DNA of 64,000 nucleotides. Source: Candidatus Daviesbacteria bacterium (GTDB lineage: Bacteria > Patescibacteriota > Microgenomatia > Daviesbacterales > UBA10151). Below the pieces are notes generated by a model, which was given only the letters and a program-made list of their open reading frames with translations, did no database searches and had not been told where the DNA came from. The translations under genes were made by a program, and so were the position numbers. This document shows positions 6,706-26,759 of this stretch, piece by piece. The DNA is taken from the NCBI GenBank assembly GCA_016176335.1, contig JACOXI010000003.1, positions 6,920 to 70,919 on the forward strand, written 5' to 3'. Every line of letters begins with the position of its first letter. The first letter of the stretch is position 1.

Positions 6706-6739
6706 AGAGTCATCAGCTATCAGACGTCAGTCGTCAGAC

Positions 6740-8136: not shown

Positions 8137-8847
8137 CTATTTCCCAAAATTGCGCTTTTGATTCTGATACCAAACAACGGCCTTTTTAAATTCATTCTCA
8201 TCAAAATCCGGCCATAGGGTTTTGGTAAAATAAAACTCGCTGTAGGCTGTTTGCCAAAGTAAAAAATTGGAAAGTCTACTTCTGCCTCCGGTTCTAATCA
8301 AAAGCTCCGGATCTCTCTGTCCATTGGTATATAAATGCCTTTCCACTATCTCCTCATTAATCTTTTTAACTTCAATCCCCTTTTTAACAATCTCTTTGAT
8401 AGCGGAAAGCAGTTCTTTTTTACCTCCATAATTTAAAGCTATATTTAATTTGATGGACTCATTTTTAAGATATGCCTTTCTAATTCTATCGATAATTTTT
8501 ATAATAGTTTGGGGCAAGCCTTGCACCTCACCTAAAATTGTCACCCTGACTCCTTTTTTTATCATCTTCTTTAATCTGCTGTGATAACCTTTTCGGAATA
8601 GATTGAACAATCCCAGTACCTCTCTTTTGGCCCTTTCCTTAATATTCTCTGTTGATAGCGCATAAACTGTAATGGTTTTAACTCCTAATTTTTCTGATTC
8701 ATCAACAATTTTTTCCAACACTTCTGCTCCTTTCTCATGACCTTTCATGTCAGACAGACCCTTGGATCTGGCCCACCGTCTGTTACCATCCATGATTATT
8801 GCTATGTGACTTGGTATGTTTTTAGTACTTAAGTTTTTTTTATCCAT
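8137..8847 (-). CDS. uppS: Undecaprenyl diphosphate synthase (isoprenyl transferase)
   Basis: 'IAIIMDGNRRWA' is the UPP synthase hallmark. The length fits. Confidence 0.9.
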   Translation of the reverse strand: MDKKNLSTKNIPSHIAIIMDGNRRWARSKGLSDMKGHEKGAEVLEKIVDESEKLGVKTITVYALSTENIKERAKREVLGLFNLFRKGYHSRLKKMIKKGVRVTILGEVQGLPQTIIKIIDRIRKAYLKNESIKLNIALNYGGKKELLSAIKEIVKKGIEVKKINEEIVERHLYTNGQRDPELLIRTGGRSRLSNFLLWQTAYSEFYFTKTLWPDFDENEFKKAVVWYQNQKRNFGK

Positions 8848-8921: not shown

Positions 8922-9830
8922 TCACTTTTCCCTTTCCACCATATATTGCACCATTTCCGAAAATAACTTTCTCATTTTGGCATCAGAAGTAATCTTTGGT
9001 ATTACTCTTTTTGCTCTAAAAGCATATTTTAACGCTTTGGCCTCTGCCTTGTCCACTGATTCTACTTCCCCATCCAAAATATCATCTCTAATCTGAAAAG
9101 CAATCCCTGCATTCTCCCCGAATTCTTTTATCCCGCGAAGCCTTGGCGAAGTGGGACCTGCTCCTGCCAGAATTGCTCCGAGTTTAAGAGGGCCTGAAAT
9201 AGTATATCTGGCTGTTTTAAGTTTAGCTGTAAGCTTCGGGTCAGCATGGGCAACATCAAGCATTTGTCCTATGGCAGTATCCAGCATTGTTTGGGAAAAA
9301 AATCTTAAGGCCTGGTTTTTTAATTTATCTTCAAAGTTGCTTTCAGTAATAATTTTTATTGCCAGAAAAAAGCCTGCATCTGCCAAAGTGATGGCCTGCT
9401 CCACTCCTACGCGCTTATACAAGGAGGGCTGACCACGTCTTTTGGGACTTTGATCAATTATGTCGTCATGGGCCAAAATGGCAGCATGAAATATCTCATA
9501 AGCTGCAGCAATTTTAATAATAGAGCTTTCAGCTGTCAGTATCGCTTCGCCCGCCTTTGGCGTGGCTTCGCTGTCAGCTTTCAGACTTTTTTTGTCTTTG
9601 TCTGATTGCTGATAGCTGATAGCTGATGACTCTTTTGCAATCTCATATCCCAACACCACCAAAGTTCCCCTGATTCTCTTGCCTCCCTTGCAGGCTTTGA
9701 TGAATTTGTCAACCAAAGGCAATAGACTTCCGGAAGTCTTGCCAACCCCATTCCTCCATTCTTTTAACAATCTCTTTAACTCTTTATCAATGTGTTCAAC
9801 TGTTTTTTGACTAAATATCTTAAAATCCAT
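8922..9830 (-). CDS. Polyprenyl (geranylgeranyl/farnesyl) diphosphate synthase; carries an in-frame repeat insertion
   Basis: The first Asp-rich motif is 'AHDDIIDQSPKRRG'. A ~95-bp repeat-derived insert encodes 'SYQQSDKDKKSLKADSEATPKAGEA'. Confidence 0.85.
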   Translation of the reverse strand: MDFKIFSQKTVEHIDKELKRLLKEWRNGVGKTSGSLLPLVDKFIKACKGGKRIRGTLVVLGYEIAKESSAISYQQSDKDKKSLKADSEATPKAGEAILTAESSIIKIAAAYEIFHAAILAHDDIIDQSPKRRGQPSLYKRVGVEQAITLADAGFFLAIKIITESNFEDKLKNQALRFFSQTMLDTAIGQMLDVAHADPKLTAKLKTARYTISGPLKLGAILAGAGPTSPRLRGIKEFGENAGIAFQIRDDILDGEVESVDKAEAKALKYAFRAKRVIPKITSDAKMRKLFSEMVQYMVEREK

Positions 9831-9856: not shown

Positions 9857-10788
9857 CTAGTGCACTTTTTTAGTAGAATTTCTTGACTCGATAACTCTTT
9901 TTGCCATAGGGATAATAATGCTTTTCCTCATCAAAACACCATCTCTACAAGAAATGTTATTTTCGAATTTAATACCCAGTGTTTGTGTAAGTAGTGTCTT
10001 AGAGGGTTCATCCACTACAACAAAAGTGTTTTTTATTTTTTCTGTATCAATAAGTGAGAGGAAAATCAAATCTAAGTTTTTTTCTTTTTTTATTTTAGTA
10101 AGTACTTTTTGTATTTCTTCTTTGTTTTTATTGACAAAATCATCAGTATTAACAATTTCTAATTGTGCAATTCCTAACTGTTTAGAACGAAATTCGAAAG
10201 TTGCAAAGTCATCACAGAATACTTCTTTTAAGGGTTTTTTAAATACTGACTTTGCCACAAACATTTTATGGACATAGTTTTCAGGTGAATCAAATTGTTT
10301 TACCAACCAATCATACATTTTCTTGTCCCTATCTGTAGTTACATTCGCTTGGAAATTAACGGTATTTGAGATGATCGCTGAGTAAAGCAGGGCTGCGGAG
10401 GAAGAAGTTATAATTATTTTTTCTTTAAAGAATTTTTCAGCAATTAAGGTTGCACAGGACCCAACCAATTCAATCTGTATTTTTGCATTAGGAAATTTAT
10501 CTGCTTGATTACTTGCTTTGGGTCAATTAAGTTTGAGATACCGCGTAAATCACTTGCATCCACAAGGATTAACCTGTCTTTCTGATTGAGAATGTTTTCT
10601 GCTTGAGCAGGTTTATCAATATCAAAGGTTTTAAAGACAAATTGTGCCTCACTGTGAGGTGTACCAAAAAGCGCAGCAATTGCATTCTTACCTTTTTTTT
10701 TAAGTAACTCTGCATATGCTATCGCAGAGGCAGTACCATCCAAGTCAGGATTGGAATAACCAGTAACAATAATACGTGATTGAGACAT
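9857..10788 (-). pseudogene. DHH-family phosphoesterase (family II inorganic pyrophosphatase-like), frameshifted and lacking the DHH motif
   Basis: Two overlapping ORFs (10444..10788 and 9857..10468, the second from a TTG) match the PpaC N- and C-parts ('YSNPDLDGTASAIAYAELL...ILVDASD', then 'GSCATLIAEKF'). The motifs are DHN->DAS and DHH->KQI. Confidence 0.45.
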
Positions 10789-10913: not shown

Positions 10914-11354
10914 TCATCCTTCCTCTGTAGGCAATAACTTCATCTCCAATTGGTACTGGAATAGTACTTCCCTGCATATGTTCTTCTGCTTCTTGCCTTG
11001 ACATGTGTCAAATATATAATAAGTATGTTGATAGAACCTTGGATCGAGAGATTCTGTGTAGTCTGTTCTTTGCGGTAACTCTTTTTGCCCAATCCAGAAG
11101 ATACCGCACAAGTTACCATTTTCATCTACCCTATCCGTAAGAGCATAAATAGTCCGACCTTTTTGTCTCCAGATCTCATACTTCTCCGGTGACATAAAAC
11201 GACCTTCATCACCATCCAGGTTAATAGGGTCTTTTTCAATTTGAGTGAATATGATAAGTTGGTTTACCTGATGTAGAGTTATACCGAAATGGATATAAAA
11301 AGATTCTTGCGTCTGCTCTGCAATAACTTCTTTAAGAACTTCATGCGTATTCAT
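10914..11354 (-). CDS. Hypothetical protein
   Basis: The ORF is 146 aa with no recognisable motifs. A 69-aa ORF (10795..11004) overlaps its 3' end in another frame, so it may be frameshifted. Confidence 0.3.
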   Translation of the reverse strand: MNTHEVLKEVIAEQTQESFYIHFGITLHQVNQLIIFTQIEKDPINLDGDEGRFMSPEKYEIWRQKGRTIYALTDRVDENGNLCGIFWIGQKELPQRTDYTESLDPRFYQHTYYIFDTCQGKKQKNICREVLFQYQLEMKLLPTEEG

Positions 11355-11401
11355 TATAGAGTATTATACTACTTGGTTTCTAGCCCTGTTATAATCACAG
11401 T

Positions 11402-12022
11402 ATGATAAAAGCTGTATTTTTCGATATCAATGACACTTTAACTAATCACTCTCGCGCACAAGAAGTCGCCATTAAGAAAATGGCCGTCTTTTTATCTAAA
11501 CATGATGAAACAGAATTTATCAAAGTTTGGAAAGAGACAGCCAAAAAATATTGGGAGCTTTTTGAGAAAAGGAAAATAACCTTTGAGGAGCAGCGCCTAC
11601 AGAGAGTAGAGTCCGTCTGGAATCATTTTAAAGCTAAATTGACACCTGAGCAGATTAACCAATATGCCAATTATTATGTTAGTTATTATGAGCAAGTATT
11701 AAGTATAAACCCCACTCTTAAAGTTTTTCTTGAATTATTACAAACAAACCACATTCCAGCGGGTATTATATCCAATGGACATGGACACATACAAAGGAGG
11801 AGATTAAAAGTTATCGGAATTGAGCCACACTTGACTAACAGGCTGGTCTTTATTTCTGAGGAGATTGGCATTGCTAAACCGGATGAAAAAATATTCATAC
11901 AAGCAGAAAAAGCTGTTGGTGTTTCCTCTTCAGATATCCTTTTCTTTGGAGATGACCTTAAAAACGATATTGAACCAGCTAAAAAAAGAGGTTGGAGAAC
12001 TGTACTGATAACACCTCCGTAG
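11402..12022 (+). CDS. HAD-superfamily hydrolase (subfamily IA)
   Basis: 'FFDINDTL' is the DxDxT motif I. The C-terminal 'FFGDDLKNDIEPAKKRG' is motif IV. Confidence 0.75.
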   Translation: MIKAVFFDINDTLTNHSRAQEVAIKKMAVFLSKHDETEFIKVWKETAKKYWELFEKRKITFEEQRLQRVESVWNHFKAKLTPEQINQYANYYVSYYEQVLSINPTLKVFLELLQTNHIPAGIISNGHGHIQRRRLKVIGIEPHLTNRLVFISEEIGIAKPDEKIFIQAEKAVGVSSSDILFFGDDLKNDIEPAKKRGWRTVLITPP

Positions 12023-12063
12023 TTTGCTTCTTGTGGATGCTTTTTGATGTGACGAGCCGATTA

Positions 12064-13233
12064 ATGGTAGAATTGCCTTTCATGAAAAGCAAACTTTCTC
12101 TTCGCGACTTTCCTTCCGCTCAAAAAAGACGCCAGTTTTTAGAAAAAGAGTTAAAACTAGACTTGGACAGTCTTGGTAGTTTCACTTTTTCAGAGGAAGA
12201 AGTCACCGGTAGAAATATAGAAAATCTAATTGGAGCAACACATATTCCTTTGGGTATCGCTGGTCCACTCAAAATCATAAATCATAAATCATCAATCATA
12301 AATCACTTTATACCATTGGCCACTACCGAAGGAGCATTGGTAGCTTCTTTATCCCGCGGCTGCAAGGCCATCACAGAAAGTGGCGGGACAGAAGTTTTGG
12401 TGGAAAATATCGGTATCACCCGCGGCCCGGTATTTAGGACTGAAAGCTTGCAGCATGGACAACAAATCAAAAAGTGGGTGGAGCAAAACTTCACCAAGTT
12501 GGCCAAGGTATCAAAAAGTACTTCTTCCCATCTGAAATTACTGAAAGTAGAACCAGCCATGGTGGGACGTAATTTGTGGCTTCGTTTCTATTTTGATACT
12601 GAAGATGCCATGGGCATGAATATGGCAACAATTGCCACAGATGAGGCAGTGAAACTAATTGAAAAGGAAACAAAAGCTAAGTGTATATCTTTGGCAGGAA
12701 ATTATGACATTGACAAAAAGCCCTCTTGGCTGAATTTCATTTCCGGGCGGGGTAAAAAGGTCTGGGCAGAAGCTGTCTTACCCAAAAAAGTGGTCAGGGA
12801 AGTGCTTAAAACTACGCCGGAAAAGATGGCCGAGGTAGTCTATAGAAAATGCTTGCTGGGTTCAGCAGTCAGCGGTTCATTGGGCTTTAATGCTCATTTT
12901 GCCAATATACTCTCCGCCATCTTTCTGGCCACCGGCCAAGATCCCGCTCATGTGGTGGAAGGCAGTTTGGGAGTGACCACTGCCGAGGTTATGCCCAATG
13001 GCAACTTATATTTCTCCGTCTATCTGCCATCTTTGGTGGTGGGAGTAGTTGGCGGAGGAACACATCTGCCTACCCAAAAAAAAGCCTTAGAAATTATGCA
13101 GGTGAACAATGTGCTAGAATATACTCGGGCTGTGGGAGCAGCTGTTATTTCTGGTGAAATTTCATTAATTGCCTCTCTTTCGGAAGGAAGTTTGGCAAAA
13201 GCACACCGGAAACTGGGTAGAAAAGGAAAATAG
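12064..13233 (+). CDS. hmgA: Hydroxymethylglutaryl-CoA reductase (class I, archaeal/eukaryotic type)
   Basis: 'ENLIGATHIPLGIAGPLKI...TTEGALVASLSRGCKAI' matches. The track ORF starts at 11992 inside the upstream gene, and an in-frame ATG at 12064 is the more likely start. It contains an in-frame 'atcataa' tandem repeat that encodes 'IINHKSSIINH'. Confidence 0.85.
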   Translation: MVELPFMKSKLSLRDFPSAQKRRQFLEKELKLDLDSLGSFTFSEEEVTGRNIENLIGATHIPLGIAGPLKIINHKSSIINHFIPLATTEGALVASLSRGCKAITESGGTEVLVENIGITRGPVFRTESLQHGQQIKKWVEQNFTKLAKVSKSTSSHLKLLKVEPAMVGRNLWLRFYFDTEDAMGMNMATIATDEAVKLIEKETKAKCISLAGNYDIDKKPSWLNFISGRGKKVWAEAVLPKKVVREVLKTTPEKMAEVVYRKCLLGSAVSGSLGFNAHFANILSAIFLATGQDPAHVVEGSLGVTTAEVMPNGNLYFSVYLPSLVVGVVGGGTHLPTQKKALEIMQVNNVLEYTRAVGAAVISGEISLIASLSEGSLAKAHRKLGRKGK

Positions 13234-13383
13234 GAGCGAAGTCACAAGTAATCAAAAAATGTAGTGCAGTTGAGCGCACCACTTATTCAATGTTTCGAAA
13301 CCAGAATCTGGCGCGAAACAAACACCAAGTGAGCGATCCGGTCGCGCGAACGGTTTTTTGTACTGTGACGAGCGACAAACATT
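13234..13383 (+). repeat. ~145-bp dispersed repeat element, copy 1 (fills the hmgA / HMG-CoA synthase intergenic region)
   Basis: It is near-identical to 26611..26759 and 57806..57960. It shares 'agcgaagtca...caaaaaatgt.gtgcagttgagc...ggcgcgaaac...gcgagcgacctggtcgcgcgagcggttttttg...tgacgagc'. Confidence 0.8.
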
Positions 13384-14427
13384 ATGATAGGCATTGTTTC
13401 TTACGGAGTTTATATACCAATATTTAGGATCAAACCATCGCAAATTGCTCAAGCTTGGGGTAAAGGGTTTGGGGAAATTGAAAAATCTTTGGGGGTATAT
13501 GAGAAGACAGTTGCCTCATATGATGAGGATGCTATAACTTTGGCAGTTGAAGCCTCATACCAAGCTTTAGTAAACGCCCAAATCAAACCACAACAAATAG
13601 ATGCCATCACAGTTGGTTCAGAGTCCCATCCGTACGCTGTAAAACCATCCTCAACTACAGTGGCAGGAATTTTGGGGTTACCAGAAGAATTGCTGGCAGT
13701 AGATTTGGAATTTGCCTGCAAAGCAGGAACAGCAGGGATTCAACTACTTGCCGACTTTTCCCAGGCAGGTCATGCCAAATACTGCTTGGCAGTGGGATCT
13801 GATGTTGCTCAATCGCGTCCATCCGATGTTTTGGAATACACCGCCTCATCCGCCGCCGCAGCCTTTATTTTGGGTAAAAGTAATATCATTGCCAATATAG
13901 TAGATTTCACGTCTTTCTCTTCTGATACTCCTGATTTTTGGAGAAGAGACAGCGAAAAATTTCCCTCTCATGCAGGCAGATTTACAGGCTCCCCTGCTTA
14001 CTTTGCCCACGTATTAGGTGCATCAGAAAGGATGTTTGAGAAAACTAAAATGAAGCCTCAAGATTTTGATTATGCTGTTTTCCATATGCCCAATGCCAAA
14101 TTTCCCAAAGAGGCCGCCAAAAAATTGGGATTTACTCCCAAACAACTTGAGGCAGGATTTATTGTTCCCCAAATAGGCAACCCCTATTCTGCCTCATCAA
14201 TGATCGGTTTGGCTGCCATCTTGGATGTGGCAAAGGCAGGAGATAAAATTTTTATGTGCTCATATGGATCGGGAGCCGGTTCAGATGCTTTCATGTTTGA
14301 GGTAACAAAAGAAATTACAGCTCATCAAAAAAGAAATCAGGAAACTGTAACAAAACAAATTAAAGATAAAGAGTATATAGATTACTCACTAATTGCTAAA
14401 AATATTTTGACAAAGTACAGGATCTAG
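13384..14427 (+). CDS. Hydroxymethylglutaryl-CoA synthase (archaeal type)
   Basis: 'MIGIVSYGVYIPIFRI' is the archaeal HMGCS N-terminus. It sits in the mevalonate operon with thiolase and DUF35. Confidence 0.85.
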   Translation: MIGIVSYGVYIPIFRIKPSQIAQAWGKGFGEIEKSLGVYEKTVASYDEDAITLAVEASYQALVNAQIKPQQIDAITVGSESHPYAVKPSSTTVAGILGLPEELLAVDLEFACKAGTAGIQLLADFSQAGHAKYCLAVGSDVAQSRPSDVLEYTASSAAAAFILGKSNIIANIVDFTSFSSDTPDFWRRDSEKFPSHAGRFTGSPAYFAHVLGASERMFEKTKMKPQDFDYAVFHMPNAKFPKEAAKKLGFTPKQLEAGFIVPQIGNPYSASSMIGLAAILDVAKAGDKIFMCSYGSGAGSDAFMFEVTKEITAHQKRNQETVTKQIKDKEYIDYSLIAKNILTKYRI

Positions 14428-14538
14428 AGGAATGTAGAATTCAGAGTTTAGAGTTCAGAATGGTGTAGAATTTAGAATTCTTAAATTGATTATAAATTCT
14501 AAATTTAATTCTGAATTATGAATTCTTAATTATAAATT

Positions 14539-15672
14539 ATGAAAGTAAAAGTATTAGGAACAGGTCTTACTAAGTTTGGAGAGCATTGGGACAAAAGTCT
14601 TAAAGATTTGGCTTTTGCTGCTGCTAAAGAAGCCATTGAGGACTCAGGACTTGACACTGACAAAATAGATGCTGTCTTTGTTGCTAACATGCTCCATGGA
14701 AAGCTCACGGGACAGGATCATCTGGGAGCTTTAGTTGCTTCAAATTTAGGAATTGTTGGCGGAGCTTTTAGGGTGGAAGCAGCTTGCGCTTCAGGGGGAA
14801 TCGCCATACATTTGGCCATCCAATCTCTCATGTCTGGAACCTATAAAAATGTACTGGTGGTGGGAGCTGAAAAAATGACCGATGCAGGAGCCTCCGAGAT
14901 TTCATCAGCTTTAATGGGTGCAGGTAGTGAGGATGAAAGAAAAGCTGGGCTGACCTTTCCTGCTTTATATGCCCTGATGGCCAAAGCCCACATGCAAAAA
15001 TATGGCACCACAAGATCGCATTTAGCCTCTGTTTCTGTTAAAAATCATTATCATGCTTCCTTAAATGAAAAAGCTCAATTCCCATATGAAGTAACTTTAG
15101 AAAAAGTCTTAGAAAGCCCAATCATCTCCTCTCCTTTTACTCTTTTTGATGTCTGTCCTGTTACTGATGGGGCAGGTGCTGTAGTCTTAAGTTCAGATTC
15201 CACCCAACCTGGAGTTTTTATTACTGGCTCTGCTGTGGCCACAGATACTGTAGATCTTTCCCAAAGAAGTAGCCTAATAGAAATTGCCGCCACCAGGCAG
15301 GCTGCAAAAGAAGCTCTAAAACAGGCTGGGGTCAAAATAAGTGACATCAAAGTGGCAGAAGTTCATGACTGTTTCACCATTGCAGAAATTTTGGCCATGG
15401 AAGATTTGGGCTTTTGCCAAAAAGGCGAAGGTGGAAAGTTCATCCAAAAAGGCTCAACTAAACTTGGAGGAAGCTGTCCTGTCAATACTTCTGGAGGACT
15501 TAAGGCTTGCGGTCATCCTGTGGCAGCAACAGGAGTAAAACAAATTATAGAAATTACCCGTCAGCTACAAGGAAGGGTGGGTAAAAGACAAGTTGCAAAT
15601 GCAGATGTTGGTTTAACACACAATGTAGGAGGAACTGGAGGAACAGTGGTGGTACATGTATTACAAACTTAA
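14539..15672 (+). CDS. Acetyl-CoA acetyltransferase (archaeal-type thiolase)
   Basis: 'MKVKVLGTGLTKFGEHWDKS' is the thiolase N-terminus. It has the C-terminal 'GHPVAATG' motif. Confidence 0.85.
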   Translation: MKVKVLGTGLTKFGEHWDKSLKDLAFAAAKEAIEDSGLDTDKIDAVFVANMLHGKLTGQDHLGALVASNLGIVGGAFRVEAACASGGIAIHLAIQSLMSGTYKNVLVVGAEKMTDAGASEISSALMGAGSEDERKAGLTFPALYALMAKAHMQKYGTTRSHLASVSVKNHYHASLNEKAQFPYEVTLEKVLESPIISSPFTLFDVCPVTDGAGAVVLSSDSTQPGVFITGSAVATDTVDLSQRSSLIEIAATRQAAKEALKQAGVKISDIKVAEVHDCFTIAEILAMEDLGFCQKGEGGKFIQKGSTKLGGSCPVNTSGGLKACGHPVAATGVKQIIEITRQLQGRVGKRQVANADVGLTHNVGGTGGTVVVHVLQT

Positions 15673-15773
15673 AACTCAAATGTCAAAACTCAAAACTACA
15701 ACTATAATCTCAAAAGTTTTAAGATTTAAGATGCAGATTTGCAATTTGAGATCTAAGATTTGAGATAAATATT

Positions 15774-16094
15774 ATGAATAGTAGTCCTGTACAAATTTGG
15801 AGAAAACATAAAAATTTACATAATTACCTGGGTAAAACAGGTAGGCTTTTGGTTTGGACTAAGATCTTTGTGGCCCCAACCGGTTTTGAGCACCAAACCC
15901 CCTATATTGTAGGCATTGTACAATTTGAAGACCCTTCGACAAGTTCAGGGCAAGTTAGATTGCCTGCGCAAGTTGTAGATTGTCCTGAAGAATCCCTAAA
16001 AGTAAACCAAAAGGTACAAGTAGTGATCCGAAAAATAGGTAAAGCAAAAGCTGAAGATGTTATTGAATATGGAATAAAGGTAAAACCTTTATGA
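15774..16094 (+). CDS. DUF35 OB-fold/Zn-ribbon protein (partner of archaeal thiolase/HMGCS complex)
   Basis: It is a small protein immediately downstream of the thiolase. That is the conserved archaeal arrangement. Confidence 0.65.
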   Translation: MNSSPVQIWRKHKNLHNYLGKTGRLLVWTKIFVAPTGFEHQTPYIVGIVQFEDPSTSSGQVRLPAQVVDCPEESLKVNQKVQVVIRKIGKAKAEDVIEYGIKVKPL

Positions 16095-16996
16095 TTTCGT
16101 TTTCGGCTCCAGGCAAAATTCATCTGCTTGGCGAGCATGCTGTAGTGTATGGTAAACCTGCTGTGCTTGCTGCCATAGACCTTAGAGTCCATGTCAAAAT
16201 TTCTCCCTCTCGTCATGCTGATCTCAACAAAGAATCTGATTCTCTAAAAAAAATCATTGAGCCTATTGTTAAAAAAGAGCTTAAGATTAAAAAAATTCCA
16301 CCTTATGATCTTAAGATTTTATCGGAAATACCCGTAGGCTCTGGTTTAGGCTCATCAGCTGCTGTATCATCTGCCTACATTGCCGCTATCCTCTCTTTTT
16401 TAAATGTTAAATGGAATTTGGAGCTTGTGAACAATCTGGCTTATGAAGCAGAAAAAGTCTTTCATGGCAATCCTTCAGGGGCAGACAACTTCGTGGTGGT
16501 ATATGGAGGGGTTGTTTGGTTCCACAAACAAACAGAGCCGGTTAAACTGTCCTCTCAAATTAAACAATTTATGCTGATTGATTCCGGCAAACCAGTGGAA
16601 TCAACCAAGGAAATGGTGGAGAAAGTCAGAATCAAGCTACAAGAATCAAGAATTGAGGTTCAAAAGATTTTTGATGATCAGGAAAGGTTGGTCAAAGAAC
16701 TGGTAGTAGCCTTAAAAGATGGGAACCAAAACCAATTAATCAGCATTATCAGGCAGGGAGAAAAGAATTTGGAAAGTTTAGGTGTGGTGGGTAGAAAGGC
16801 CCAAAATATCATCCGGCTGGTGGAAAAGACAGGCGGGGTAGCCAAAATCAGCGGAGCAGGCGGAGTAAAGAGCGGTTCCGGTATGCTGCTTTGCTATCAC
16901 CCACACCCCAAAACTTTGCTTAGCTTCACCAAGACCCATTATCTGCCGACCCTCTCCATTGCACTGGGAGAGAAGGGTTTACTTCTTTGTCGATAA
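16091..16996 (+). CDS. mvk: Mevalonate kinase (GHMP kinase)
   Basis: 'SAPGKIHLLGEHAVVYG' and 'PVGSGLGSSAA' are GHMP motifs. Confidence 0.8.
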   Translation: MISFSAPGKIHLLGEHAVVYGKPAVLAAIDLRVHVKISPSRHADLNKESDSLKKIIEPIVKKELKIKKIPPYDLKILSEIPVGSGLGSSAAVSSAYIAAILSFLNVKWNLELVNNLAYEAEKVFHGNPSGADNFVVVYGGVVWFHKQTEPVKLSSQIKQFMLIDSGKPVESTKEMVEKVRIKLQESRIEVQKIFDDQERLVKELVVALKDGNQNQLISIIRQGEKNLESLGVVGRKAQNIIRLVEKTGGVAKISGAGGVKSGSGMLLCYHPHPKTLLSFTKTHYLPTLSIALGEKGLLLCR

Positions 16997-17499
16997 AATA
17001 ACGAGTTTGGCTGGGTTAAGCATCTGTCCACTGCAAAACCAATCTGCTGCAATAATATCCTGGCTCCCTCCCCATTCGCCACAATTGCCTCTTGTCCAAA
17101 CTCCGCTCGAGCGGGCTGGGGATAAACAACAGAATAACCCCGGCTTTTACCCTGCTGCCCTCCCAAATAGTCCACATCCTTCCAGATTTTGAATCTCCTA
17201 CCTCCTAATATTTCTACTCTAGTGAGGTTAGCCTCAACCGAATTCCCTAACTCATCCCATTTGACCAACAGGCGGCTGATTAAAACAGTACCATGCTCAT
17301 CCTTACTATCTGTTCCCATCACAATCCCCAGATTAATTATTTCTGTTTCTGACTCGCTTGCTGTCTGCAGTCGCATCCCGAGTCTGGTAGCCGGCACCCC
17401 TTTGTCTTGATCTTCCTTACGAAGGTCCATAGCCTGAGCATCGTGTACGACTCTTTCAATGCGAGCGCGAATATTTTCTGCCTGCTCTCGTAGCGGCAC
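16939..17499 (-). CDS. Hypothetical protein encoded antisense within the mevalonate operon (GC-rich insert; possibly frameshifted with 17337..17579)
   Basis: The 186-aa ORF has no recognisable motifs. Its composition is distinct from the flanking sequence. An overlapping 80-aa ORF could be its displaced N-terminus. Confidence 0.3.
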   Translation of the reverse strand: MPLREQAENIRARIERVVHDAQAMDLRKEDQDKGVPATRLGMRLQTASESETEIINLGIVMGTDSKDEHGTVLISRLLVKWDELGNSVEANLTRVEILGGRRFKIWKDVDYLGGQQGKSRGYSVVYPQPARAEFGQEAIVANGEGARILLQQIGFAVDRCLTQPNSLFYRQRSKPFSPSAMERVGR

Positions 17500-17655
17500 C
17501 TCTGGAAATTCACTCCTTTGACCCCTTCTAACTTCTCCCCTAAGTTGTCTAATATTTCTCTTTCGGTAAATTTCGTCATATTGTAAGAATTCTAAACGTT
17601 AGTCATGCCAAAATCAAGCATAGCTTTCCTAATTTAGGTAATATATAATCCAGCC

Positions 17656-18639
17656 ATGATCAAACAAGTGCAGGTGTCTGCACCGGGAAAATTAATGTTA
17701 TTTGGGGAACATGCTGTTTTATATGGCAGGCCCTGCATTGTCACAGCTGTGGGACAAAGAATGAAAGCTACAGTTACACTCACTGATGAGCCTATTTTTG
17801 AGCTTAATGCTCCTGATGTAGCGGTTGTACACTACCAAAAACTCATGCACGAGCTTGGCCGGGGAGAAATCCCCAAGGGAGCAAAATTTGTAGAAATGGC
17901 TGTGTATAATTTTTATAATAATTATAAAAGCTATATTAAAGAGTCCGGAATTCAAGTTACCACTACTTCTGACTTTTCCTCCCAGTTTGGCTTTGGCTCC
18001 TCCTCTGCTGCTACTGTTTGCGTGATCAAAGCTTTATCCCAGTTAACCGGATCCAAACTTTCCAACAAAGCTATTTTTGATTTATCCTACCTGACAGTTT
18101 TGGATATTCAAGGCAAAGGTTCCGGCTTTGATGTGGCAGCAGCTGTATATGGTGGAACTTTGTACTTTGTGATTGGAGGCAAGGTGATTAAACCATTAAA
18201 CCTCCCTTATTTACCTCTCATAGTGGGTTATTCAGGGATTAAGGCTGATACAGTAGATCTTATAAATCAGGTTTCCCGGAAAGCTGCCAAATTTCCAAAA
18301 GTAATAGATGACATCTATACTTCCATCGGGGAATTAGTTCTTCAGGCTAAAAAAGCTATCCTAAAACAGGATTGGGAAACTTTAGGAGAACTGATGTATT
18401 TAAACCAGGGATATTTGTCTGCTTTAGGAGTAAGCAGTGGCAAATTGGAATCCATGATCCATGCTGCCAGAGAAGCTGGAGCATATGGAGCTAAATTATC
18501 CGGAGCAGGAGGCGGAGACTGTATGATAGCCTTGGCTCCTTCTAAATCCAAAAATGGTGTTGAGGAGGCCATAAACAAAGCTGGTGGACAAACAATAGAT
18601 GTCAAAACAAATGTTCCCGGTGTTAGAATAGAAAAATGA
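17656..18639 (+). CDS. GHMP kinase, mevalonate-kinase paralog (candidate phosphomevalonate kinase)
   Basis: 'SAPGKLMLFGEHAVLYG', 'FGFGSSSAA' and 'KLSGAGGGDCMIAL' are GHMP motifs. Confidence 0.7.
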   Translation: MIKQVQVSAPGKLMLFGEHAVLYGRPCIVTAVGQRMKATVTLTDEPIFELNAPDVAVVHYQKLMHELGRGEIPKGAKFVEMAVYNFYNNYKSYIKESGIQVTTTSDFSSQFGFGSSSAATVCVIKALSQLTGSKLSNKAIFDLSYLTVLDIQGKGSGFDVAAAVYGGTLYFVIGGKVIKPLNLPYLPLIVGYSGIKADTVDLINQVSRKAAKFPKVIDDIYTSIGELVLQAKKAILKQDWETLGELMYLNQGYLSALGVSSGKLESMIHAAREAGAYGAKLSGAGGGDCMIALAPSKSKNGVEEAINKAGGQTIDVKTNVPGVRIEK

Positions 18640-19625
18640 AAGCCACAGCCATAGCACCATCAAATATAGCCTTTACCAAGTACTGGGGCAGAAAAGATGA
18701 AGAATTAAGACTACCAGAAAATGGATCAGTGTCCATGAGCCTGTCTAATTTATTGACCACCACCACTGTAGAGTTTTCTGATAAATACAATAAAGATGAA
18801 ATCACAATCAATGGCGGTGGGGTGGAAGAAGGAGAAACTAACAGAGTCATTAAACACTTGGAAAGAGTCAGAAAAATGGCAGGTCCGGCAATAGCCGGAT
18901 TAAAAGCTAAGGTAGTTTCTAAAAATAACTTCCCTATTGGGACCGGACTTTCATCTTCTGCTTCAGGTTTTGCCGCACTAACTTTAGCTGCTTCCAAAGC
19001 AGCTGGGTTAGATTTATCGGAAAAAGAGCTGTCAATTTTAGCACGCCAAGGATCTGGCTCTGCCTGTCGTTCTGTCCCTTCCGGCTTTGTGGAATGGCTA
19101 GATGGAGATACATCTGATACATCTTATGCAGTTCAGATTTTTCCTCCTGACTTTTGGGATATAGCAGATGTGATAGCTATTGTTTCAGAGAGTAAAAAAG
19201 CAGTCTCAACTTCTCAAGGTCAACAATCAGCTCAATCTTCCCCTTTTATGGGGGTCCGGCTAAGCCGGATGAAAGAAAAAAATGAAAGGGTTAAAAAGTT
19301 AATTGAAGAAAGAAATTTTAAACAGTTTGGGGAGCTAATTGAGGCAGAAGCTTTGGAATTACATACTATCATGCTTACTCAAACCCCTCCCCTAATTTAC
19401 TGGACTCCAGGAACCTTACAGATTATGAAACTTACTTCCCGCTGGAGAGCGCAGGGTTTACCTGTTTATTTCACCATCAACACCGGCCAAGATATTCATT
19501 TAATTTGCGAACAAAAAAATGTTAAAAAAGTTGTGGCCAAATTAAAAGAGCTGTATTTTGTCAAAGATATTATTGTTAATACTCCAGGAGAAGGAACCAG
19601 GCTTTCAGAAAACCATTTATTTTAA
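18636..19625 (+). CDS. mvaD: Diphosphomevalonate decarboxylase
   Basis: 'APSNIAFTKYWGRKDEELRLPENGSVSMSL' is the MVD N-terminal signature. Confidence 0.85.
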   Translation: MKATAIAPSNIAFTKYWGRKDEELRLPENGSVSMSLSNLLTTTTVEFSDKYNKDEITINGGGVEEGETNRVIKHLERVRKMAGPAIAGLKAKVVSKNNFPIGTGLSSSASGFAALTLAASKAAGLDLSEKELSILARQGSGSACRSVPSGFVEWLDGDTSDTSYAVQIFPPDFWDIADVIAIVSESKKAVSTSQGQQSAQSSPFMGVRLSRMKEKNERVKKLIEERNFKQFGELIEAEALELHTIMLTQTPPLIYWTPGTLQIMKLTSRWRAQGLPVYFTINTGQDIHLICEQKNVKKVVAKLKELYFVKDIIVNTPGEGTRLSENHLF

Positions 19626-20155
19626 TTAAAAAATCCTGCTTCTTTTAACACCTTTACCCCCTCCACTGCCCAAGGGGCATATTTTTGAGGATTGGCTTCT
19701 ATGTCTTGTAAAAACTCTTTTTTGTTGACCCATTTATACTCATACCCAACATCAGGGTTCATCTTCACCTCTCCATTATATTCCCCCACCAATAGACAGC
19801 AATGCTCGTTCTCACAAAAATCTCCATCTTTGGCAAAATAATTAAATTCTCCCATTCTTTTTAGACTGATGTTTTCTATATCATACTCATTCTTAAGAGC
19901 TCTAAATGTAGCCTCTTCAAAGGTCTCATCTGTACTATCAGCCTGATGTAAAGGATGAGTTGAAGCTGTCAAATCCCATAAATTATCAAAAATTTGATGT
20001 TTTCTCCTTTGTAGTAGAAATTGCCCCGTGGAATTATACAAAAGGACTGTAATTGCCAAGTGTCTTTTACCCTCTCCAGTATGGCCTAATTCTTTTGGGA
20101 TATATTTTAAGAATTTTCCATTGTCATCTACTGCCAAAATTATTTGTTGATCCAT
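19622..20155 (-). CDS. idi: Isopentenyl-diphosphate delta-isomerase, type 1 (Nudix)
   Basis: It is a Nudix-like IDI-1 of 177 aa at the end of the MVA operon. Confidence 0.8.
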   Translation of the reverse strand: MDQQIILAVDDNGKFLKYIPKELGHTGEGKRHLAITVLLYNSTGQFLLQRRKHQIFDNLWDLTASTHPLHQADSTDETFEEATFRALKNEYDIENISLKRMGEFNYFAKDGDFCENEHCCLLVGEYNGEVKMNPDVGYEYKWVNKKEFLQDIEANPQKYAPWAVEGVKVLKEAGFFN

Positions 20156-20940
20156 TAAACTCCTTCAAGCAGAGTGATCGCCATCCAAATAGCTGCCACT
20201 CCCAAAAGAAGCATAATACTTTCCCAAAAAGCCACTTTTTTATTCTCTTGTGAGTGGATTTCTGGGATTAAATTGGCTGAGGCAATATAGATGAAAAACC
20301 CTGCAGTTAAGGCTAAAGCTACCGGCAGCAAAGCTTCAATGGAATCTTTGGCCAGATAAGTTAATATAGCACCAGCTAGGCTAGCTAAGGCAGACAAAAA
20401 ATTAATTTTTAACACTCTGCCCCTGGCCATACCTTTGTGAAGCATTAAGCCAAAATCTCCAATTTCTTGTGGTATTTCATGGGCGGCCACAGCCAAAGAG
20501 GTCACTATCCCTAAGGGAATACTGACCAAAAATGTGGCAGCTATGGCTACCCCATCAATGAAATTATGAACTGTATCCCCCACCACAATCAAAGGTACAA
20601 CAGATCTTTTTGCCTCCGGTTGATCGCCATGACCATGATGATGTATAAAGCGCTCCAAAAGGAAAAAGACCAAGATGCCTAAAATAGCCCAAAAAAAGAT
20701 GTTTACCTCCCCTGCACTCTCAGATGCCTCAGGCATTAGATCCAAAAAAGCTGTACCAAGCAAAGTCCCGGCAGCAAAAGCTGTTAGAAAATGAGAAATT
20801 TTCAGAGCAAATTTCTCTTTAATTAACAGTAATAATCCTCCAATTAAAGAGATGATACTACCGAGCAGTGTAAAAATTAGAATATATCCTAAAATATCCA
20901 TATTAATTCTTATTCTAACAAGAAAATTGCCCTTCCCCAC
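20155..20940 (-). CDS. ZIP-family metal (zinc) transporter
   Basis: 'HEIPQEIGDFGLML' is the ZIP signature. It has multiple TM helices and a His-rich loop ('HHHGHGD'). Confidence 0.8.
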   Translation of the reverse strand: MGKGNFLVRIRINMDILGYILIFTLLGSIISLIGGLLLLIKEKFALKISHFLTAFAAGTLLGTAFLDLMPEASESAGEVNIFFWAILGILVFFLLERFIHHHGHGDQPEAKRSVVPLIVVGDTVHNFIDGVAIAATFLVSIPLGIVTSLAVAAHEIPQEIGDFGLMLHKGMARGRVLKINFLSALASLAGAILTYLAKDSIEALLPVALALTAGFFIYIASANLIPEIHSQENKKVAFWESIMLLLGVAAIWMAITLLEGV

Positions 20941-21544
20941 AAGGTGATGGTAATTCTTTTGTCTTGGGGGTTCCGGGTTCTTTGCCTGGAAAAATATAAT
21001 CTTGGGGTTTTGTCAGATTCCACTCATGCTCATGATTCCAAAGAGTCCAAAAATACCTCCATTCGTTCCAACCAATCCCCAAATGTTTAACAAAAATACC
21101 ATTTTCCGCCAAAGCTAAGCCAATTTTTCTGCCTGTCATACAGGGCATGCTATAACAGTAAACAATTATCTCCCTATCTTTTGGTAACTGCCTAAACTGG
21201 TTTATTATCCTTTCTTTTTCTTCGTAAGCTGAAGTGTCCGGGTCTTTATAAGCAGGAATATTAACAGCCCCGATAATATGTTCTTTTTCATATTCCTGGG
21301 TACTTCTTAAATCAACCAGGGTATAACTATTATCTCCCTTATCCATCATTCTTCGCAAACTATGAGGGCTGACATAAACTGCATTTTCCGTTGCATAAAA
21401 ATCATAGATTAACTGGTCAGCAGTTTTTTTAACCTCTTTTTTGGAAAATAAAATAGTATAACTGACACTTCCTCCTATTATCGCCCCCACTATTGCTGAT
21501 AAAATTACTGTCTTTAAAAGATGCTTACTCATTACTTTTTTCAA
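20915..21544 (-). CDS. Membrane-anchored rhodanese-domain sulfurtransferase
   Basis: It has an N-terminal TM helix. The rhodanese fold shows the active-site loop 'VYCYSMPCMTGRK'. Confidence 0.6.
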   Translation of the reverse strand: MKKVMSKHLLKTVILSAIVGAIIGGSVSYTILFSKKEVKKTADQLIYDFYATENAVYVSPHSLRRMMDKGDNSYTLVDLRSTQEYEKEHIIGAVNIPAYKDPDTSAYEEKERIINQFRQLPKDREIIVYCYSMPCMTGRKIGLALAENGIFVKHLGIGWNEWRYFWTLWNHEHEWNLTKPQDYIFPGKEPGTPKTKELPSPCGEGQFSC

Positions 21545-22184
21545 TTCCTTTTTGTATTATACTCTTAAATTCCTCCAAATTCTTCGGGTTTTGTATTTTC
21601 TGGCCATTTATAAAAAATGTTGGTGTGGCATTTACTCCTGCTTTTACTGCGCTTTGGTAGTCTTTTTCCACTTCATCTCTTACCTGGTTAGACTCTAAAT
21701 CTTTCTTAAACTGTGCTAAATCCAATCCCAAATTTTGGGCATATTTTTCAAAAAGACTCCTAGGGTCTTGTACCTTTGCCCATTCTTCTTGTAAGTCAAA
21801 CAATAAATCATGCATCTGCCAAAACTTGCCTTGTTTGCCTGCAGCTTCTAATGCTTGGGAGGCAAGTTGAGAATTGAAATGAATTGATCTTAGAGGAAAA
21901 TGACGGTAGGCAAAAGTTATGGAGTCGTCAAATTCTTCAACTATTCTCTTTACCAGGGGATAATAAACTTTACAGGCAGGACATTGCAAATCAGAATACT
22001 CAATTAAGGATACCCTAGCCTCTCTTTTCCCTTTGATCCAGTCAGAATCTGAAACAAGATCAACTTGTGTAGTTACTAAGTTTTTATTTTCCTTTTCCTG
22101 TTCCACAGATTTAAGGAAAAGAACTGCCAGAGCTATCGTAGAAACAATAATAATACCCAGAATAATGGCTAATTTAGTTTTCAC
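21525..22184 (-). CDS. DsbA-like thioredoxin-fold thiol:disulfide oxidoreductase
   Basis: It has a signal/TM anchor. The CxxC motif is 'CPAC'. Confidence 0.7.
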   Translation of the reverse strand: MKTKLAIILGIIIVSTIALAVLFLKSVEQEKENKNLVTTQVDLVSDSDWIKGKREARVSLIEYSDLQCPACKVYYPLVKRIVEEFDDSITFAYRHFPLRSIHFNSQLASQALEAAGKQGKFWQMHDLLFDLQEEWAKVQDPRSLFEKYAQNLGLDLAQFKKDLESNQVRDEVEKDYQSAVKAGVNATPTFFINGQKIQNPKNLEEFKSIIQKGIEKSNE

Positions 22185-22807
22185 TATTGCTCCACGGTCT
22201 TTTCAGGACCCTGGTTTAGATGAGTATCTATAAACTTTTCTATCCTAGAAGCGTCAAACTGATCAAATTTATCAATATAAGTCCAGGCTGTTAAAGCAAT
22301 TCTTACATCCATATTTGGTCTGGGAATAACAATCAATTTCTTTTTGCCCTTTTTCTCATATACTGAAATTAACTGATCTACCAATTTATGGCAATCAGCG
22401 GATCTAAAAGCAGCAGATAAGGTGGCAGAAGGACTGGACTCTGAAGCTGATGACGTGGCTTCCTCCTCTATCCCATGAGCATAAACTGTTCCCTGTAACC
22501 TGTACCCTGTACCCTGTTTCTCGCAGTTATACGACATAATCACATATCCATGTTCCAAAGAGTGAATCAAATTTCCATCTTCTTTGGGGGCCTCATATAT
22601 CCCGCTTCTTACCCAATCTGCATAATGAGAACCTGATGTAGGTGGATTGGAATTATAATCTACTTTTTCTGAAGCTGGCACATGTTTTCTGCCTAAATCC
22701 GCTACTTTAATACCTGGTAAAGGTTTTGATGAAGCTATAAACAACCAAACCAAGAACCCTCCAAAAGCTAAAATTGCTACAGTGATTAAAATATATTTAT
22801 TATCCAT
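22184..22807 (-). CDS. DUF3105-domain protein, membrane-anchored
   Basis: 'HSLEHGYVIMSY' is the motif. It contains a coding 'gtaccctg' tandem repeat at about 22484-22512. Confidence 0.5.
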   Translation of the reverse strand: MDNKYILITVAILAFGGFLVWLFIASSKPLPGIKVADLGRKHVPASEKVDYNSNPPTSGSHYADWVRSGIYEAPKEDGNLIHSLEHGYVIMSYNCEKQGTGYRLQGTVYAHGIEEEATSSASESSPSATLSAAFRSADCHKLVDQLISVYEKKGKKKLIVIPRPNMDVRIALTAWTYIDKFDQFDASRIEKFIDTHLNQGPEKTVEQ

Positions 22808-22817
22808 GAAAACTTCC

Positions 22818-23564
22818 TTATCGAAATTCTAGCACAAAAGCGGAAGATCCCAAAATACCCAGAAAATACCTTGATAAAAAAGTATAATATCCTGTAATGA
22901 GTAAAACACCGATTAGTATTATCAGAACCCCGGTAATTTTTTGAATTTGTGGCAAGTATTTATTAAGCCTTGATAGCTGGGGGGTAAGTTTATCAAAAAG
23001 TAAGGCAATCAAAAGAAACGGCGTGGCCAGACCAATTCCAAAGACCGCCATCAAGATAACAGCCGACAGAATATTTTGACCTAAAGAGGAAAGCACCAGA
23101 ATTGTTGCCAGAACCGGGCCAATACAGGGAGTCCAGGCAAAGCCAAAAATAAGCCCCATTAAAAATCCGGATATTGGTTTTCCGCCTTTTACCCTACCTA
23201 AATGAAAACCTCTTTCTTTGGATAAAAAAGGCACTTTTAAAACATTTAAAAAGTATAGTCCCAAAATTATTACCATCACTCCCCCCACTTTATCTATATA
23301 ACTTCTATAAGGACCCAGCATCCTGGCCAAGCTGTTAACAGTTAATCCCAATAACATAAAAACACCGACAAATCCCGCCACAAAAAATAAACCATTAAAA
23401 AAGGCTTTAAATCTGGCAACTTCCAAACGGCGCAGACTATCAATACTCACTCCTGAAAGATATCCTAAATAAACAGGCACAATGGGAGCTACACAGCCGG
23501 CAAAAAAAGTTAAAACACCTGCCAGAAAGGCAATTAAAAGATTTAATAGATTTATCTCAACCAT
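22818..23564 (-). CDS. ccdA: Cytochrome c-type biogenesis / disulfide-reductant transfer protein CcdA (DsbD-like)
   Basis: It is a polytopic membrane protein. The conserved Cys are in TM1 ('FFAGCVAPIVP') and a later TM ('AWTPCIGP'). Confidence 0.75.
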   Translation of the reverse strand: MVEINLLNLLIAFLAGVLTFFAGCVAPIVPVYLGYLSGVSIDSLRRLEVARFKAFFNGLFFVAGFVGVFMLLGLTVNSLARMLGPYRSYIDKVGGVMVIILGLYFLNVLKVPFLSKERGFHLGRVKGGKPISGFLMGLIFGFAWTPCIGPVLATILVLSSLGQNILSAVILMAVFGIGLATPFLLIALLFDKLTPQLSRLNKYLPQIQKITGVLIILIGVLLITGYYTFLSRYFLGILGSSAFVLEFR

Positions 23565-23569
23565 GTAAA

Positions 23570-24301
23570 TTAAGACTGAAGAAGAGAATCTATGGCGGGC
23601 TTGAGTTGTTCAAATGGCACTGCCCCGGGAACAGCTATGGTTTTGCCGGACTTAGTATCCAGTAGAATATTACCAGGAGTACCGGTCACACCAGCTTTGA
23701 TACCTGATTGGTAATCTTCTTCAACATGAGCTGCGTATTTACCAGAATCCAAACAAGCCTTGAATTTATTTTGATCCAAACCTACTTGAGCAGCTAATTT
23801 TGGCAAATCATCCAAATTTAAACCATTATTAGAGGGAGTCACTTCAAAAATTTTATCTGTCATCTTCCAAAAACCATCATTACCCGAAAGTTCTGCTGCA
23901 CATTCTGTGGCCTCCGCTTCTTTGTCAGCTTTGGAATGAATTTGATCCAGAGGGAAATGTCTGTAGACCCAAGCCACCTGGCCTTTGTATTCCGAAACTG
24001 CTTGTTGAGCTGTTGGGTGAAATCTTTTGCAAAATGGACATTCCAGATCTGAATATTCAATCAGAAGTATGCGGGCATTTTTATTGCCGCGAATATGATC
24101 ATCGGCTCTTAATTTTTCCACCTCTACCTTGGTAGGCTCTGCTGGTTGAGCTACTTGAGGGGGTTGGGCAGGAGCAGCAGTTCCTGTTGTGACCTTCCCC
24201 ACTTTAATTATTCCCCCATGCAAAAGGATAGCAACTGCTATTACCAAACAGCCCAGAAGGATTGCTAAAGGGGTGGTTAAGAAGGAATTTTTATCTGTCA
24301 T
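23570..24301 (-). CDS. DsbA-like thioredoxin-fold thiol:disulfide oxidoreductase (second copy)
   Basis: It has a TM anchor. The CxxC motif is 'CPFC'. Confidence 0.7.
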   Translation of the reverse strand: MTDKNSFLTTPLAILLGCLVIAVAILLHGGIIKVGKVTTGTAAPAQPPQVAQPAEPTKVEVEKLRADDHIRGNKNARILLIEYSDLECPFCKRFHPTAQQAVSEYKGQVAWVYRHFPLDQIHSKADKEAEATECAAELSGNDGFWKMTDKIFEVTPSNNGLNLDDLPKLAAQVGLDQNKFKACLDSGKYAAHVEEDYQSGIKAGVTGTPGNILLDTKSGKTIAVPGAVPFEQLKPAIDSLLQS

Positions 24302-25787: not shown

Positions 25788-25800
25788 AAAGACAAAGTCC

Positions 25801-26607: not shown

Positions 26608-26610
26608 ATT

Positions 26611-26759
26611 AAGTAAAGATAGCGAAGTCACAAGCAGTCAAAAAATGTTGTGCAGTTGAGCATACCACTTTATTCATGACCGATTCCATTCCATGGCGCG
26701 AAACGAACACAAGCGAGCGACCTGGTCGCGCGAGCGCTTTTTTGCGCTGTGACGAGCTA
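26611..26759 (+). repeat. ~145-bp dispersed repeat element, copy 2 (fills the PRTase/IMPase intergenic region)
   Basis: It aligns end-to-end with copies at 13234..13383 and 57806..57960. Its 'tgacgagctag' end supplies the PRTase stop codon. Confidence 0.8.

Follow-up and report, generated by a model that had tools for sequence, protein, structure and literature searches.

A mevalonate gene cluster of Candidatus Daviesbacteria with an archaeal-type upper half and a bacterial-type lower half

Introduction

The mevalonate (MVA) gene set of the Candidate Phyla Radiation (CPR) was described previously by Hoshino and Gaucher in 2018 (PMC6107057) as a combination of archaeal and bacterial/eukaryotic features, with the genes clustered and syntenic with a cis-prenyltransferase gene, and with an isopentenyl phosphate kinase (IPK) of unknown function present in some CPR. 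Here, we analyzed a cluster of this kind in a 64-kb stretch of DNA (hereafter, the window) from a Candidatus Daviesbacteria bacterium (contig JACOXI010000003.1, positions 6,920 to 70,919), in which genes for the MVA pathway run from an HMG-CoA reductase gene (hmgA) at position 12064 to a decarboxylase gene ending at 19625. The window cluster shares its host group and its clustering with a cis-prenyltransferase gene with the published set, and no essential difference separates the two. The hybrid layout, in which the early steps are archaeal-type and the later ones bacterial-type, was published in 2018 and is therefore no discovery. DUF35, on the other hand, is never mentioned in that study (0 occurrences), and the portions of it available to us make no mention of the active-site variants or of the mutually exclusive kinase genes reported below.

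For its individual parts, the closest described systems are the thiolase/HMGCS/DUF35 complex of Methanothermococcus thermolithotrophicus (6ESQ/6ET9), the mvaK1-mvaD-mvaK2 operon of Gram-positive cocci, the phosphomevalonate decarboxylase (PMD) of Anaerolinea thermophila (6N0X, identified as a PMD in PMC9254496) and the Escherichia coli isopentenyl diphosphate isomerase Idi (1NFS and others). As in the Gram-positive operon, three genes of the GHMP superfamily, for mevalonate kinase (MVK), phosphomevalonate kinase (PMVK or PMK) and diphosphomevalonate decarboxylase (MDD or DMD), would be clustered in the window. Their order differs, however, the putative PMVK is MVK-like (~327 aa, with a GEHAV motif) rather than of the ~360-aa Gram-positive type, and the decarboxylase lacks the K/I/S-R/M/DAGPN signature that is canonical in that operon type.

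We consider it quite probable that the cluster encodes the classical MVA route behind an archaeal-type and probably channelled entry. The archaeal-type thiolase would condense two molecules of acetyl-CoA, and the archaeal-type HMG-CoA synthase (HMGS) would take over the acetoacetyl-CoA, both enzymes probably being held together by a DUF35 OB-fold protein without a zinc ribbon; a class I HMG-CoA reductase would then yield mevalonate. The first GHMP kinase (GHMP1, 16091-16996) would phosphorylate mevalonate as MVK and the second (GHMP2, 17656-18639) mevalonate 5-phosphate as PMVK, after which the decarboxylase homologue would convert mevalonate 5-diphosphate to isopentenyl diphosphate (IPP). A convergently encoded protein resembling type 1 IPP isomerase (IDI-1) would interconvert IPP and dimethylallyl diphosphate (DMAPP), and a nearby trans-prenyl synthase and UppS would elongate these products. 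Polyprenyl carrier lipids are the most likely destination of the IPP and DMAPP from this cluster.

The cluster illustrates how genome-reduced CPR bacteria supply isoprenoid precursors with an archaeal-style entry module and a bacterial-style exit, and it bears on the debate about whether the last universal common ancestor had an MVA pathway, a point already made in 2018. Added here are a provisional kinase assignment, a putative replacement between PMVK and IPK, and three conserved variants open to biochemical testing (a zinc-less DUF35 protein, a decarboxylase with Asn282 and an isomerase with a relocated cysteine). The variants and the PMVK/IPK swap, which may be undescribed in the literature surveyed, merit the attention of biochemists and leave the overall picture unchanged.

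Results and Discussion

Assignment of the two GHMP kinases

Gene identities were established for the 64-kb window alone by open reading frame (ORF) listing and Pfam and NCBIfam profile searches, which recovered, at or near the same positions, every gene named in a first-pass annotation of this DNA. That annotation had left open which of the two GHMP paralogues is the PMVK, or whether an alternative route is used. The question is legitimate, and our provisional answer is that GHMP1 (16091-16996, plus strand; TIGR00549, 205 bits, cut-off 163) is likely to be the MVK and GHMP2 (17656-18639, plus strand) the PMVK, because sequence motifs, a phylogenetic tree, profile comparisons and the pattern of gene content all point this way.

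GHMP1 carries the motif HGNPSGADN, like the MVK of Leishmania. GHMP2 carries GSGFDVAAA and GAGGGDC, which match both the PMK half of an MDD-PMK fusion and a verified classical PMK from a related locus (L035; best PDB matches 3K17 and the Streptococcus pneumoniae PMK 1K47); at the second of these motifs, archaeal MVKs have GAGGGGC. A neighbour-joining tree of GHMP proteins (Kimura distances, 100 bootstrap replicates) placed GHMP2 as sister to the clade holding the verified classical PMK, and grouped GHMP1 with the sole kinase of single-kinase clusters that bear an IPK gene (L069 and L076). Similarly, profile alignment with hhalign gave a score of 326 between GHMP2 and the PMK, compared to 244 between GHMP1 and the PMK and 226 between the PMK and MVK. 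GHMP2 is accordingly assigned here as a putative MVK-like, deep-branching PMK.

The strongest line of evidence for the kinase assignment is the mutual exclusivity of GHMP2 and IPK. Related loci were collected by scanning an alignment of the decarboxylase against 185,579 species genomes, and within ±10 kb of the decarboxylase gene GHMP2 was found in 16 loci, IPK in 12 and both together in none. This pattern is expected if GHMP1 is the shared MVK, GHMP2 the PMVK of the classical route and IPK the mark of the alternative route. Both versions exist among the Roizmanbacteria, where one locus (L013) has the order GHMP1-GHMP2-decarboxylase and another (L069) the order GHMP1-decarboxylase-IPK, and the GHMP1 orthologues of the two loci are sisters with a bootstrap value of 100.

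The complete gene order of the second locus (L069, 5412-11793, Ca. Roizmanbacteria) is HMGR-HMGS-AACT-DUF35-GHMP1-decarboxylase-IPK, where HMGR is HMG-CoA reductase and AACT acetoacetyl-CoA thiolase; it has no GHMP2 and its decarboxylase has Gln at position 21. This locus looks like a variant of the cluster that follows the alternative route. Gene fusions were uninformative as a guide to the order of the kinases, as GHMP1-decarboxylase, GHMP2-decarboxylase, MVK-MDD, MDD-PMK and IPK-decarboxylase fusions all exist.

The decarboxylase and the route of the lower pathway

The mevalonate (di)phosphate decarboxylase homologue (18636-19625, plus strand) scores 265 bits with TIGR01240 (cut-off 171), and its start codon overlaps the stop codon of GHMP2, just as the DUF35 stop codon overlaps the GHMP1 start (ATGA). 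At the phosphate-recognition positions listed for these decarboxylases by Dellas et al. (PMC3857490), the window protein has R19, R25 and Q196, a signature intermediate between MDD and PMD. Position 21 (Staphylococcus epidermidis numbering) is Arg in the window, Lys in MDDs and Asn (Asn20) in the A. thermophila PMD. In the PDB, entries 6N0Z and 6N0X differ by exactly two aligned changes, Asn to Lys and His to Met, both to the canonical MDD residues, and the conversion of PMD specificity to DMD by mutagenesis has been reported (PMC9254496). Among the related loci, 14 of 15 GHMP2-bearing clusters have Lys or Arg at position 21 (the exception, L010, has Thr), compared to Asn, Gln or Ala, mostly Asn, in nearly all IPK-linked decarboxylases. 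We interpret the enzyme as a diphosphomevalonate decarboxylase with a close evolutionary relationship to the PMDs.

A number of observations weigh against a classical route with the kinases assigned as above. In NCBIfam as well as PDB searches, the top scores of GHMP1 and GHMP2 alike are to mevalonate kinase, so that these scores fail to discriminate MVK from PMVK, both proteins carry the MVK-type GEHAV motif, and the deep (backbone) nodes of the neighbour-joining tree are weakly supported. The best PDB match of the decarboxylase is the A. thermophila PMD (6N0X, 305 bits, 45% identity), compared to ~200-218 bits and 37-39% identity for MDDs (218 bits and 39% for that of Enterococcus faecalis). 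Its position 27 is Arg as in PMDs, and Arg193 and Met196 are absent, all three features being shared with the A. thermophila enzyme. The association of position 21 with gene content is also imperfect, with Lys at this position in the IPK-linked decarboxylase of L046 and Arg in an IPK-decarboxylase fusion (P0157). Activity is not guaranteed for either of the last two enzymes, as the catalytic Asp of the decarboxylase is replaced by Asn and the catalytic Cys67 of the IDI-1-like protein by Ser. Finally, with the 64-kb window as the scope of the analysis, genes for IPK, type 2 IDI or the methylerythritol phosphate (MEP) pathway may lie elsewhere in the genome.

The PMD-like features of the decarboxylase, together with its nearest non-CPR relatives in genomes being from Chloroflexota and with the occurrence of IPK genes in CPR (PMC6107057; also L069 and L046), favor an alternative route of the haloarchaeal/Chloroflexi type. 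Here, a single kinase would feed a PMD forming isopentenyl phosphate, IPK would be encoded elsewhere, and the second GHMP protein would be redundant or act on another substrate. We regard this as unlikely, since there would be no role for GHMP2, a conserved kinase whose gene is translationally coupled to that of the decarboxylase, and since position 21 is basic and MDD-like. Furthermore, none of the 16 GHMP2-bearing clusters has an IPK gene within ±10 kb, and the IPK-bearing clusters lack GHMP2. The window decarboxylase also differs from the A. thermophila PMD in standing beside a second kinase instead of an IPK. A tblastn search of the window gave no IPK, and neither an AA_kinase domain nor a type 2 IDI was seen among the window ORFs scanned. 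An Aeropyrum-type gene set (phosphomevalonate dehydratase, anhydromevalonate phosphate decarboxylase and IPK replacing PMVK and MDD) was likewise not seen, with a lower half of GHMP-family proteins and no IPK in the window, although a dehydratase was not specifically searched for. We therefore favor the classical route, and of the complete archaeal-type pathway claimed in the first-pass annotation only the upper half is archaeal in type. The lower half is a bacterial/eukaryotic gene set composed of two MVK-like GHMP kinases, an MDD/PMD-family decarboxylase and an IDI-1-like protein.

Variant catalytic residues in the last two enzymes

The catalytic Asp of the decarboxylases is conserved throughout DMDs, PMDs and mevalonate bisphosphate decarboxylases (MBDs) (PMC9254496) and has been assigned a role in orienting the 3'-OH (PMC7414129). 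In the window protein, the equivalent residue (D283 in S. epidermidis, D282 in E. faecalis, D280 in A. thermophila) is Asn282. The alignment is ungapped at this site (FTINTGQD in the window against FTMDAGPN), such that TINTGQD stands for T(M/L)DAGPN and an Asp occupies the position four residues further on, where the canonical enzymes have Asn. Asn-for-Asp, usually accompanied by this downstream Asp, is fixed in the clade of the window (L002-L012) and also occurs in a Peribacteria locus (L083); among decarboxylase representatives at 50% identity, NTG was found in ~10 of 150, and other Microgenomates keep DAGPN. Asn could fill the 3'-OH-orienting role of the Asp as well.

The IDI-1-like NUDIX protein (19622-20155, minus strand) has E. 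coli IDI as its best PDB matches (~52 bits) and shares with it the NUDIX fold, the metal ligands H25, H32, H69, E114 and E116, and the catalytic residues E87, Y104 and W161 (E. coli numbering), all of which are invariant in 120 homologues. In place of Cys67 the window protein has Ser, and of the 120 closest homologues 74 have Ser and 46 have Ala at this position, with no Cys among them. Position 113, conversely, is Cys in the window protein and in all 120. More distant CPR homologues retain the canonical VCGHP. Based on this pattern, the catalytic thiol has apparently moved from position 67 to position 113. The presence of an IDI-1-like gene agrees with the first-pass annotation, which had counted a type 1 IPP isomerase as part of the operon. 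The gene is convergent with the MVA cluster, however, and being on the minus strand it lies outside the cluster's transcript; its product also falls below both NCBIfam IDI cut-offs (81 against 127 and 64 against 105.8 bits).

Replaced catalytic residues in two consecutive enzymes could also mean that the lower half is undergoing decay or has taken on another role in this clade, with a decarboxylase homologue acting only as a kinase and a NUDIX protein that is no longer an isomerase. Replacement of the Asp by Thr or Val turned the Sulfolobus DMD into kinases (D281T, D281V), and the Asp-to-Asn variant of the Picrophilus torridus MBD (D309N) was dead (PMC9254496). The loss of Cys67, the sub-threshold IDI scores and the NCBI name, which is merely "NUDIX domain-containing protein", fit such a scenario too. 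We nevertheless find it very improbable. The Sulfolobus DMD with D281N, i.e., the replacement seen in the window, was still active as a decarboxylase (PMC9254496), and both variants are fixed across many genomes with all other catalytic residues invariant, as exemplified by the universal Cys113 and the recurrent NTG. In addition, the whole cluster has been kept in small genomes under strong reduction, and there is no second decarboxylase homologue that could serve as a replacement. Rather than decay, both patterns look as if catalytic residues had been relocated and then kept by purifying selection. Tentatively, and with more doubt than confidence, both variants, the zinc-less DUF35 protein and the GHMP2/IPK swap around closely related decarboxylases might be read together as a CPR series linking PMD and DMD, with relocated catalytic residues in the last two enzymes of the Daviesbacteria-proximal clade. 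If true, the decarboxylase and IDI-1 would each include a new mechanistic subfamily of a textbook enzyme.

Fused and duplicated forms of both enzymes were observed in related loci. L004 encodes a 502-aa fusion of an IDI-like NUDIX protein and a decarboxylase (14617-16125), with Ser at the Cys67 position and a separate NUDIX gene downstream. L086 (GCA_015657915.1, 6774-12883) has two decarboxylase homologues, one with an N-terminal isopentenyl phosphate kinase (608 aa). It also encodes a 543-aa fusion of NUDIX and GHMP kinase and one more GHMP kinase, with genes for a geranylgeranyl-reductase-like protein and a heliorhodopsin close by.

An archaeal-type entry into the pathway

The first gene of the cluster, hmgA (12064-13233, plus strand), encodes a class I (NADPH-type) HMG-CoA reductase (PF00368, E=7e-120, 401 bits). 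It scored 425 bits with the class I model TIGR00533, slightly below the cut-off of 442, compared to 65 bits with the class II model TIGR00532. Read from the ATG at 12064, the protein is 389 aa long, and its orthologues have 383-392 aa. HMGS (13384-14427, plus strand) is of archaeal type, scoring 434 bits with TIGR00748 (cut-off 353) and 485 bits with NF003274 (above cut-off) but only 136 bits with the bacterial model TIGR01835, and its top solved structure is 6ESQ_I, at 344 bits, whereas bacterial HMGS reaches 81 bits. The archaeal-type AACT (14539-15672, plus strand; NF004720, 476 bits, cut-off 420) matched 7YVY first (288 bits) and 6ESQ_A as a close second (280 bits). Using the HMGS tetrad and the thiolase motifs CxS, HDxF and GHx as defined in PMC12960953, the catalytic tetrad of HMGS is complete (E80, C112, H234 and N266 in the motifs GSES, FACKAG, FHMPN and GNPYS), and all thiolase motifs are kept as CAS (C83), HDCF (276-279) and GHP (325-327).

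The DUF35 protein (15774-16094, plus strand; 106 aa) has PF01796, an OB fold, as its sole domain match (E=4e-12) and 6ESQ_E as its sole PDB match. The latter match (29 bits) covers the OB fold of the archaeal subunit (residues 48-127 of 130) and, weakly, its residues 3-18, and the intervening rubredoxin-like zinc ribbon has no counterpart in the window protein. None of the 13 CPR orthologues (98-106 aa) contains a CxxC, not even in a stop-to-stop reading. The genes for HMGS, thiolase and DUF35 are adjacent on one strand (13384-16094), an arrangement kept in 13 CPR loci.

Overall, the window and the Methanothermococcus complex share three adjacent genes, a best match to 6ESQ for HMGS and DUF35, and intact HMGS and thiolase motifs. 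They differ in that the window DUF35 protein is only ~100 aa long, is without zinc ribbon or CxxC and belongs to a bacterial host. The annotation of the trio as archaeal in type therefore stands. Its DUF35 member, annotated as part of a channelling complex, has the OB fold expected of that role and lacks the zinc ribbon, one of the defining features of the family. By analogy with Methanothermococcus, the three proteins probably form one channelling complex.

Conservation of the cluster in Microgenomates

The window HMGS matches a Candidatus Daviesbacteria (Microgenomates, CPR) protein at 100% identity, confirming that the host is a bacterium, and the next 120 matches (73-91% identity) bear only the names Daviesbacteria, Microgenomates or unclassified bacteria. 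In relatives, the order is uppS and ispA (minus strand), then HMGR, HMGS, thiolase, DUF35, GHMP1, GHMP2 and decarboxylase, followed by genes for the NUDIX protein and a ZIP transporter (both minus strand); DsbA-like proteins, pth and inositol monophosphatase are common downstream neighbors as well. Besides Daviesbacteria, the scan of 185,579 genomes recovered the full order from HMGR to decarboxylase in Levyi-, Roizman- and Gottesmanbacteria and in unclassified Microgenomates, and at least the kinase-decarboxylase (lower-pathway) part in loci of Woese-, Chisholm- and Pacebacteria.

As the same gene order recurs across Microgenomates, the cluster is a vertically maintained trait of this lineage and not a recent import from archaea. 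This contradicts the view of an archaeal-style module as an odd acquisition, as did the 2018 description of the CPR gene set. Recent horizontal acquisition of the module from an archaeon would account for the first three proteins matching archaeal complex subunits best; it is nonetheless extremely improbable when set against the shared gene order and neighborhood (ZIP transporter, DsbA, pth and inositol monophosphatase) across Daviesbacteria and other Microgenomates. The GC content of the cluster is 0.41, compared to 0.40 for the window, the genes of the lower half are not of archaeal type, and published phylogenies place the CPR sequences into clades of their own (PMC6107057).

Insertions and neighboring genes

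The two GHMP kinase genes, annotated as part of one run, are both present but separated by a 0.66-kb insert holding a hypothetical ORF on the minus strand. A single gene (16939-17579) accounts for both ORFs, 17337-17579 and 16939-17499, which lie in different frames, and its product is 99% identical to the hypothetical protein HYS96_00215 (a 186-aa part in the NCBI annotation). Six homologues of ~250 aa from short metagenomic contigs all start with MTKFTE; the window copy therefore has a frameshift and a deletion of ~40 aa. Pfam and NCBIfam searches with this gene gave no match. Its GC content is 0.46, compared to 0.41 for the cluster, and its 3' end runs 58 nt into the end of GHMP1, with GHMP1 still at full length. 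The gene is probably not part of the MVA pathway. A known RNA in the gap was ruled out, as no Rfam family (at gathering thresholds) and no tRNA was detected anywhere in the window and the gap holds the degraded hypothetical gene.

In L005, the gap between the kinases (11142-12647) contains a PIN-domain toxin-antitoxin pair and two small ORFs, and in L006 (6382-8558) ~2.2 kb of extra DNA lies between GHMP1 and GHMP2. The gap is a hot spot for insertions, and the cluster tolerates small ones. Genes for 23S rRNA intervening sequence proteins (four-helix bundle) also recur near the MVA cluster, at 6740-7129 (plus strand) in the window, 6659-7024 and 14850-15206 in L002 and 19726-20109 in L086; one of the L002 copies lies inside the cluster, between GHMP2 and the decarboxylase.

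Upstream, uppS (8137-8847; PF01255, E=3e-77; TIGR00055, 242 bits, cut-off 110) encodes a cis-prenyltransferase (undecaprenyl diphosphate synthase), which consumes products of the MVA pathway, and an ispA-like gene (8922-9830; PF00348, E=1e-40) encodes a trans-polyprenyl diphosphate synthase. None of the NCBIfam equivalogs reached its cut-off for the latter. Both genes were annotated upstream of hmgA and are indeed found there, 2-4 kb away and on the minus strand. In L002, L004, L005 and other Microgenomates, an uppS gene likewise adjoins the MVA genes. In the window, a pyrophosphatase, an HAD hydrolase and a 146-aa ORF separate ispA from hmgA, which are directly adjacent in relatives. The pyrophosphatase, a family II (Mn-dependent) inorganic enzyme (9857-10788, minus strand), is split into overlapping ORFs for its DHH (114 aa) and DHHA2 (203 aa) parts and reflects either a frameshift or a pseudogene. 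Promoter-like sites in the window were near background (29, against a shuffled mean of 25.9) and terminator-like sites ~2 standard deviations above it (17, against a shuffled mean of 10.6, standard deviation 3.2); neither result was used in the analysis.

Downstream of the NUDIX gene, a run of thiol-redox genes (20915-24301, minus strand) encodes a rhodanese, two DsbA-like thioredoxins, a DUF3105 protein and a DsbD-type membrane protein. It is followed by two tandem inositol-monophosphatase paralogues of 275 and 276 aa (24960-26631, minus strand), of which relatives have one.

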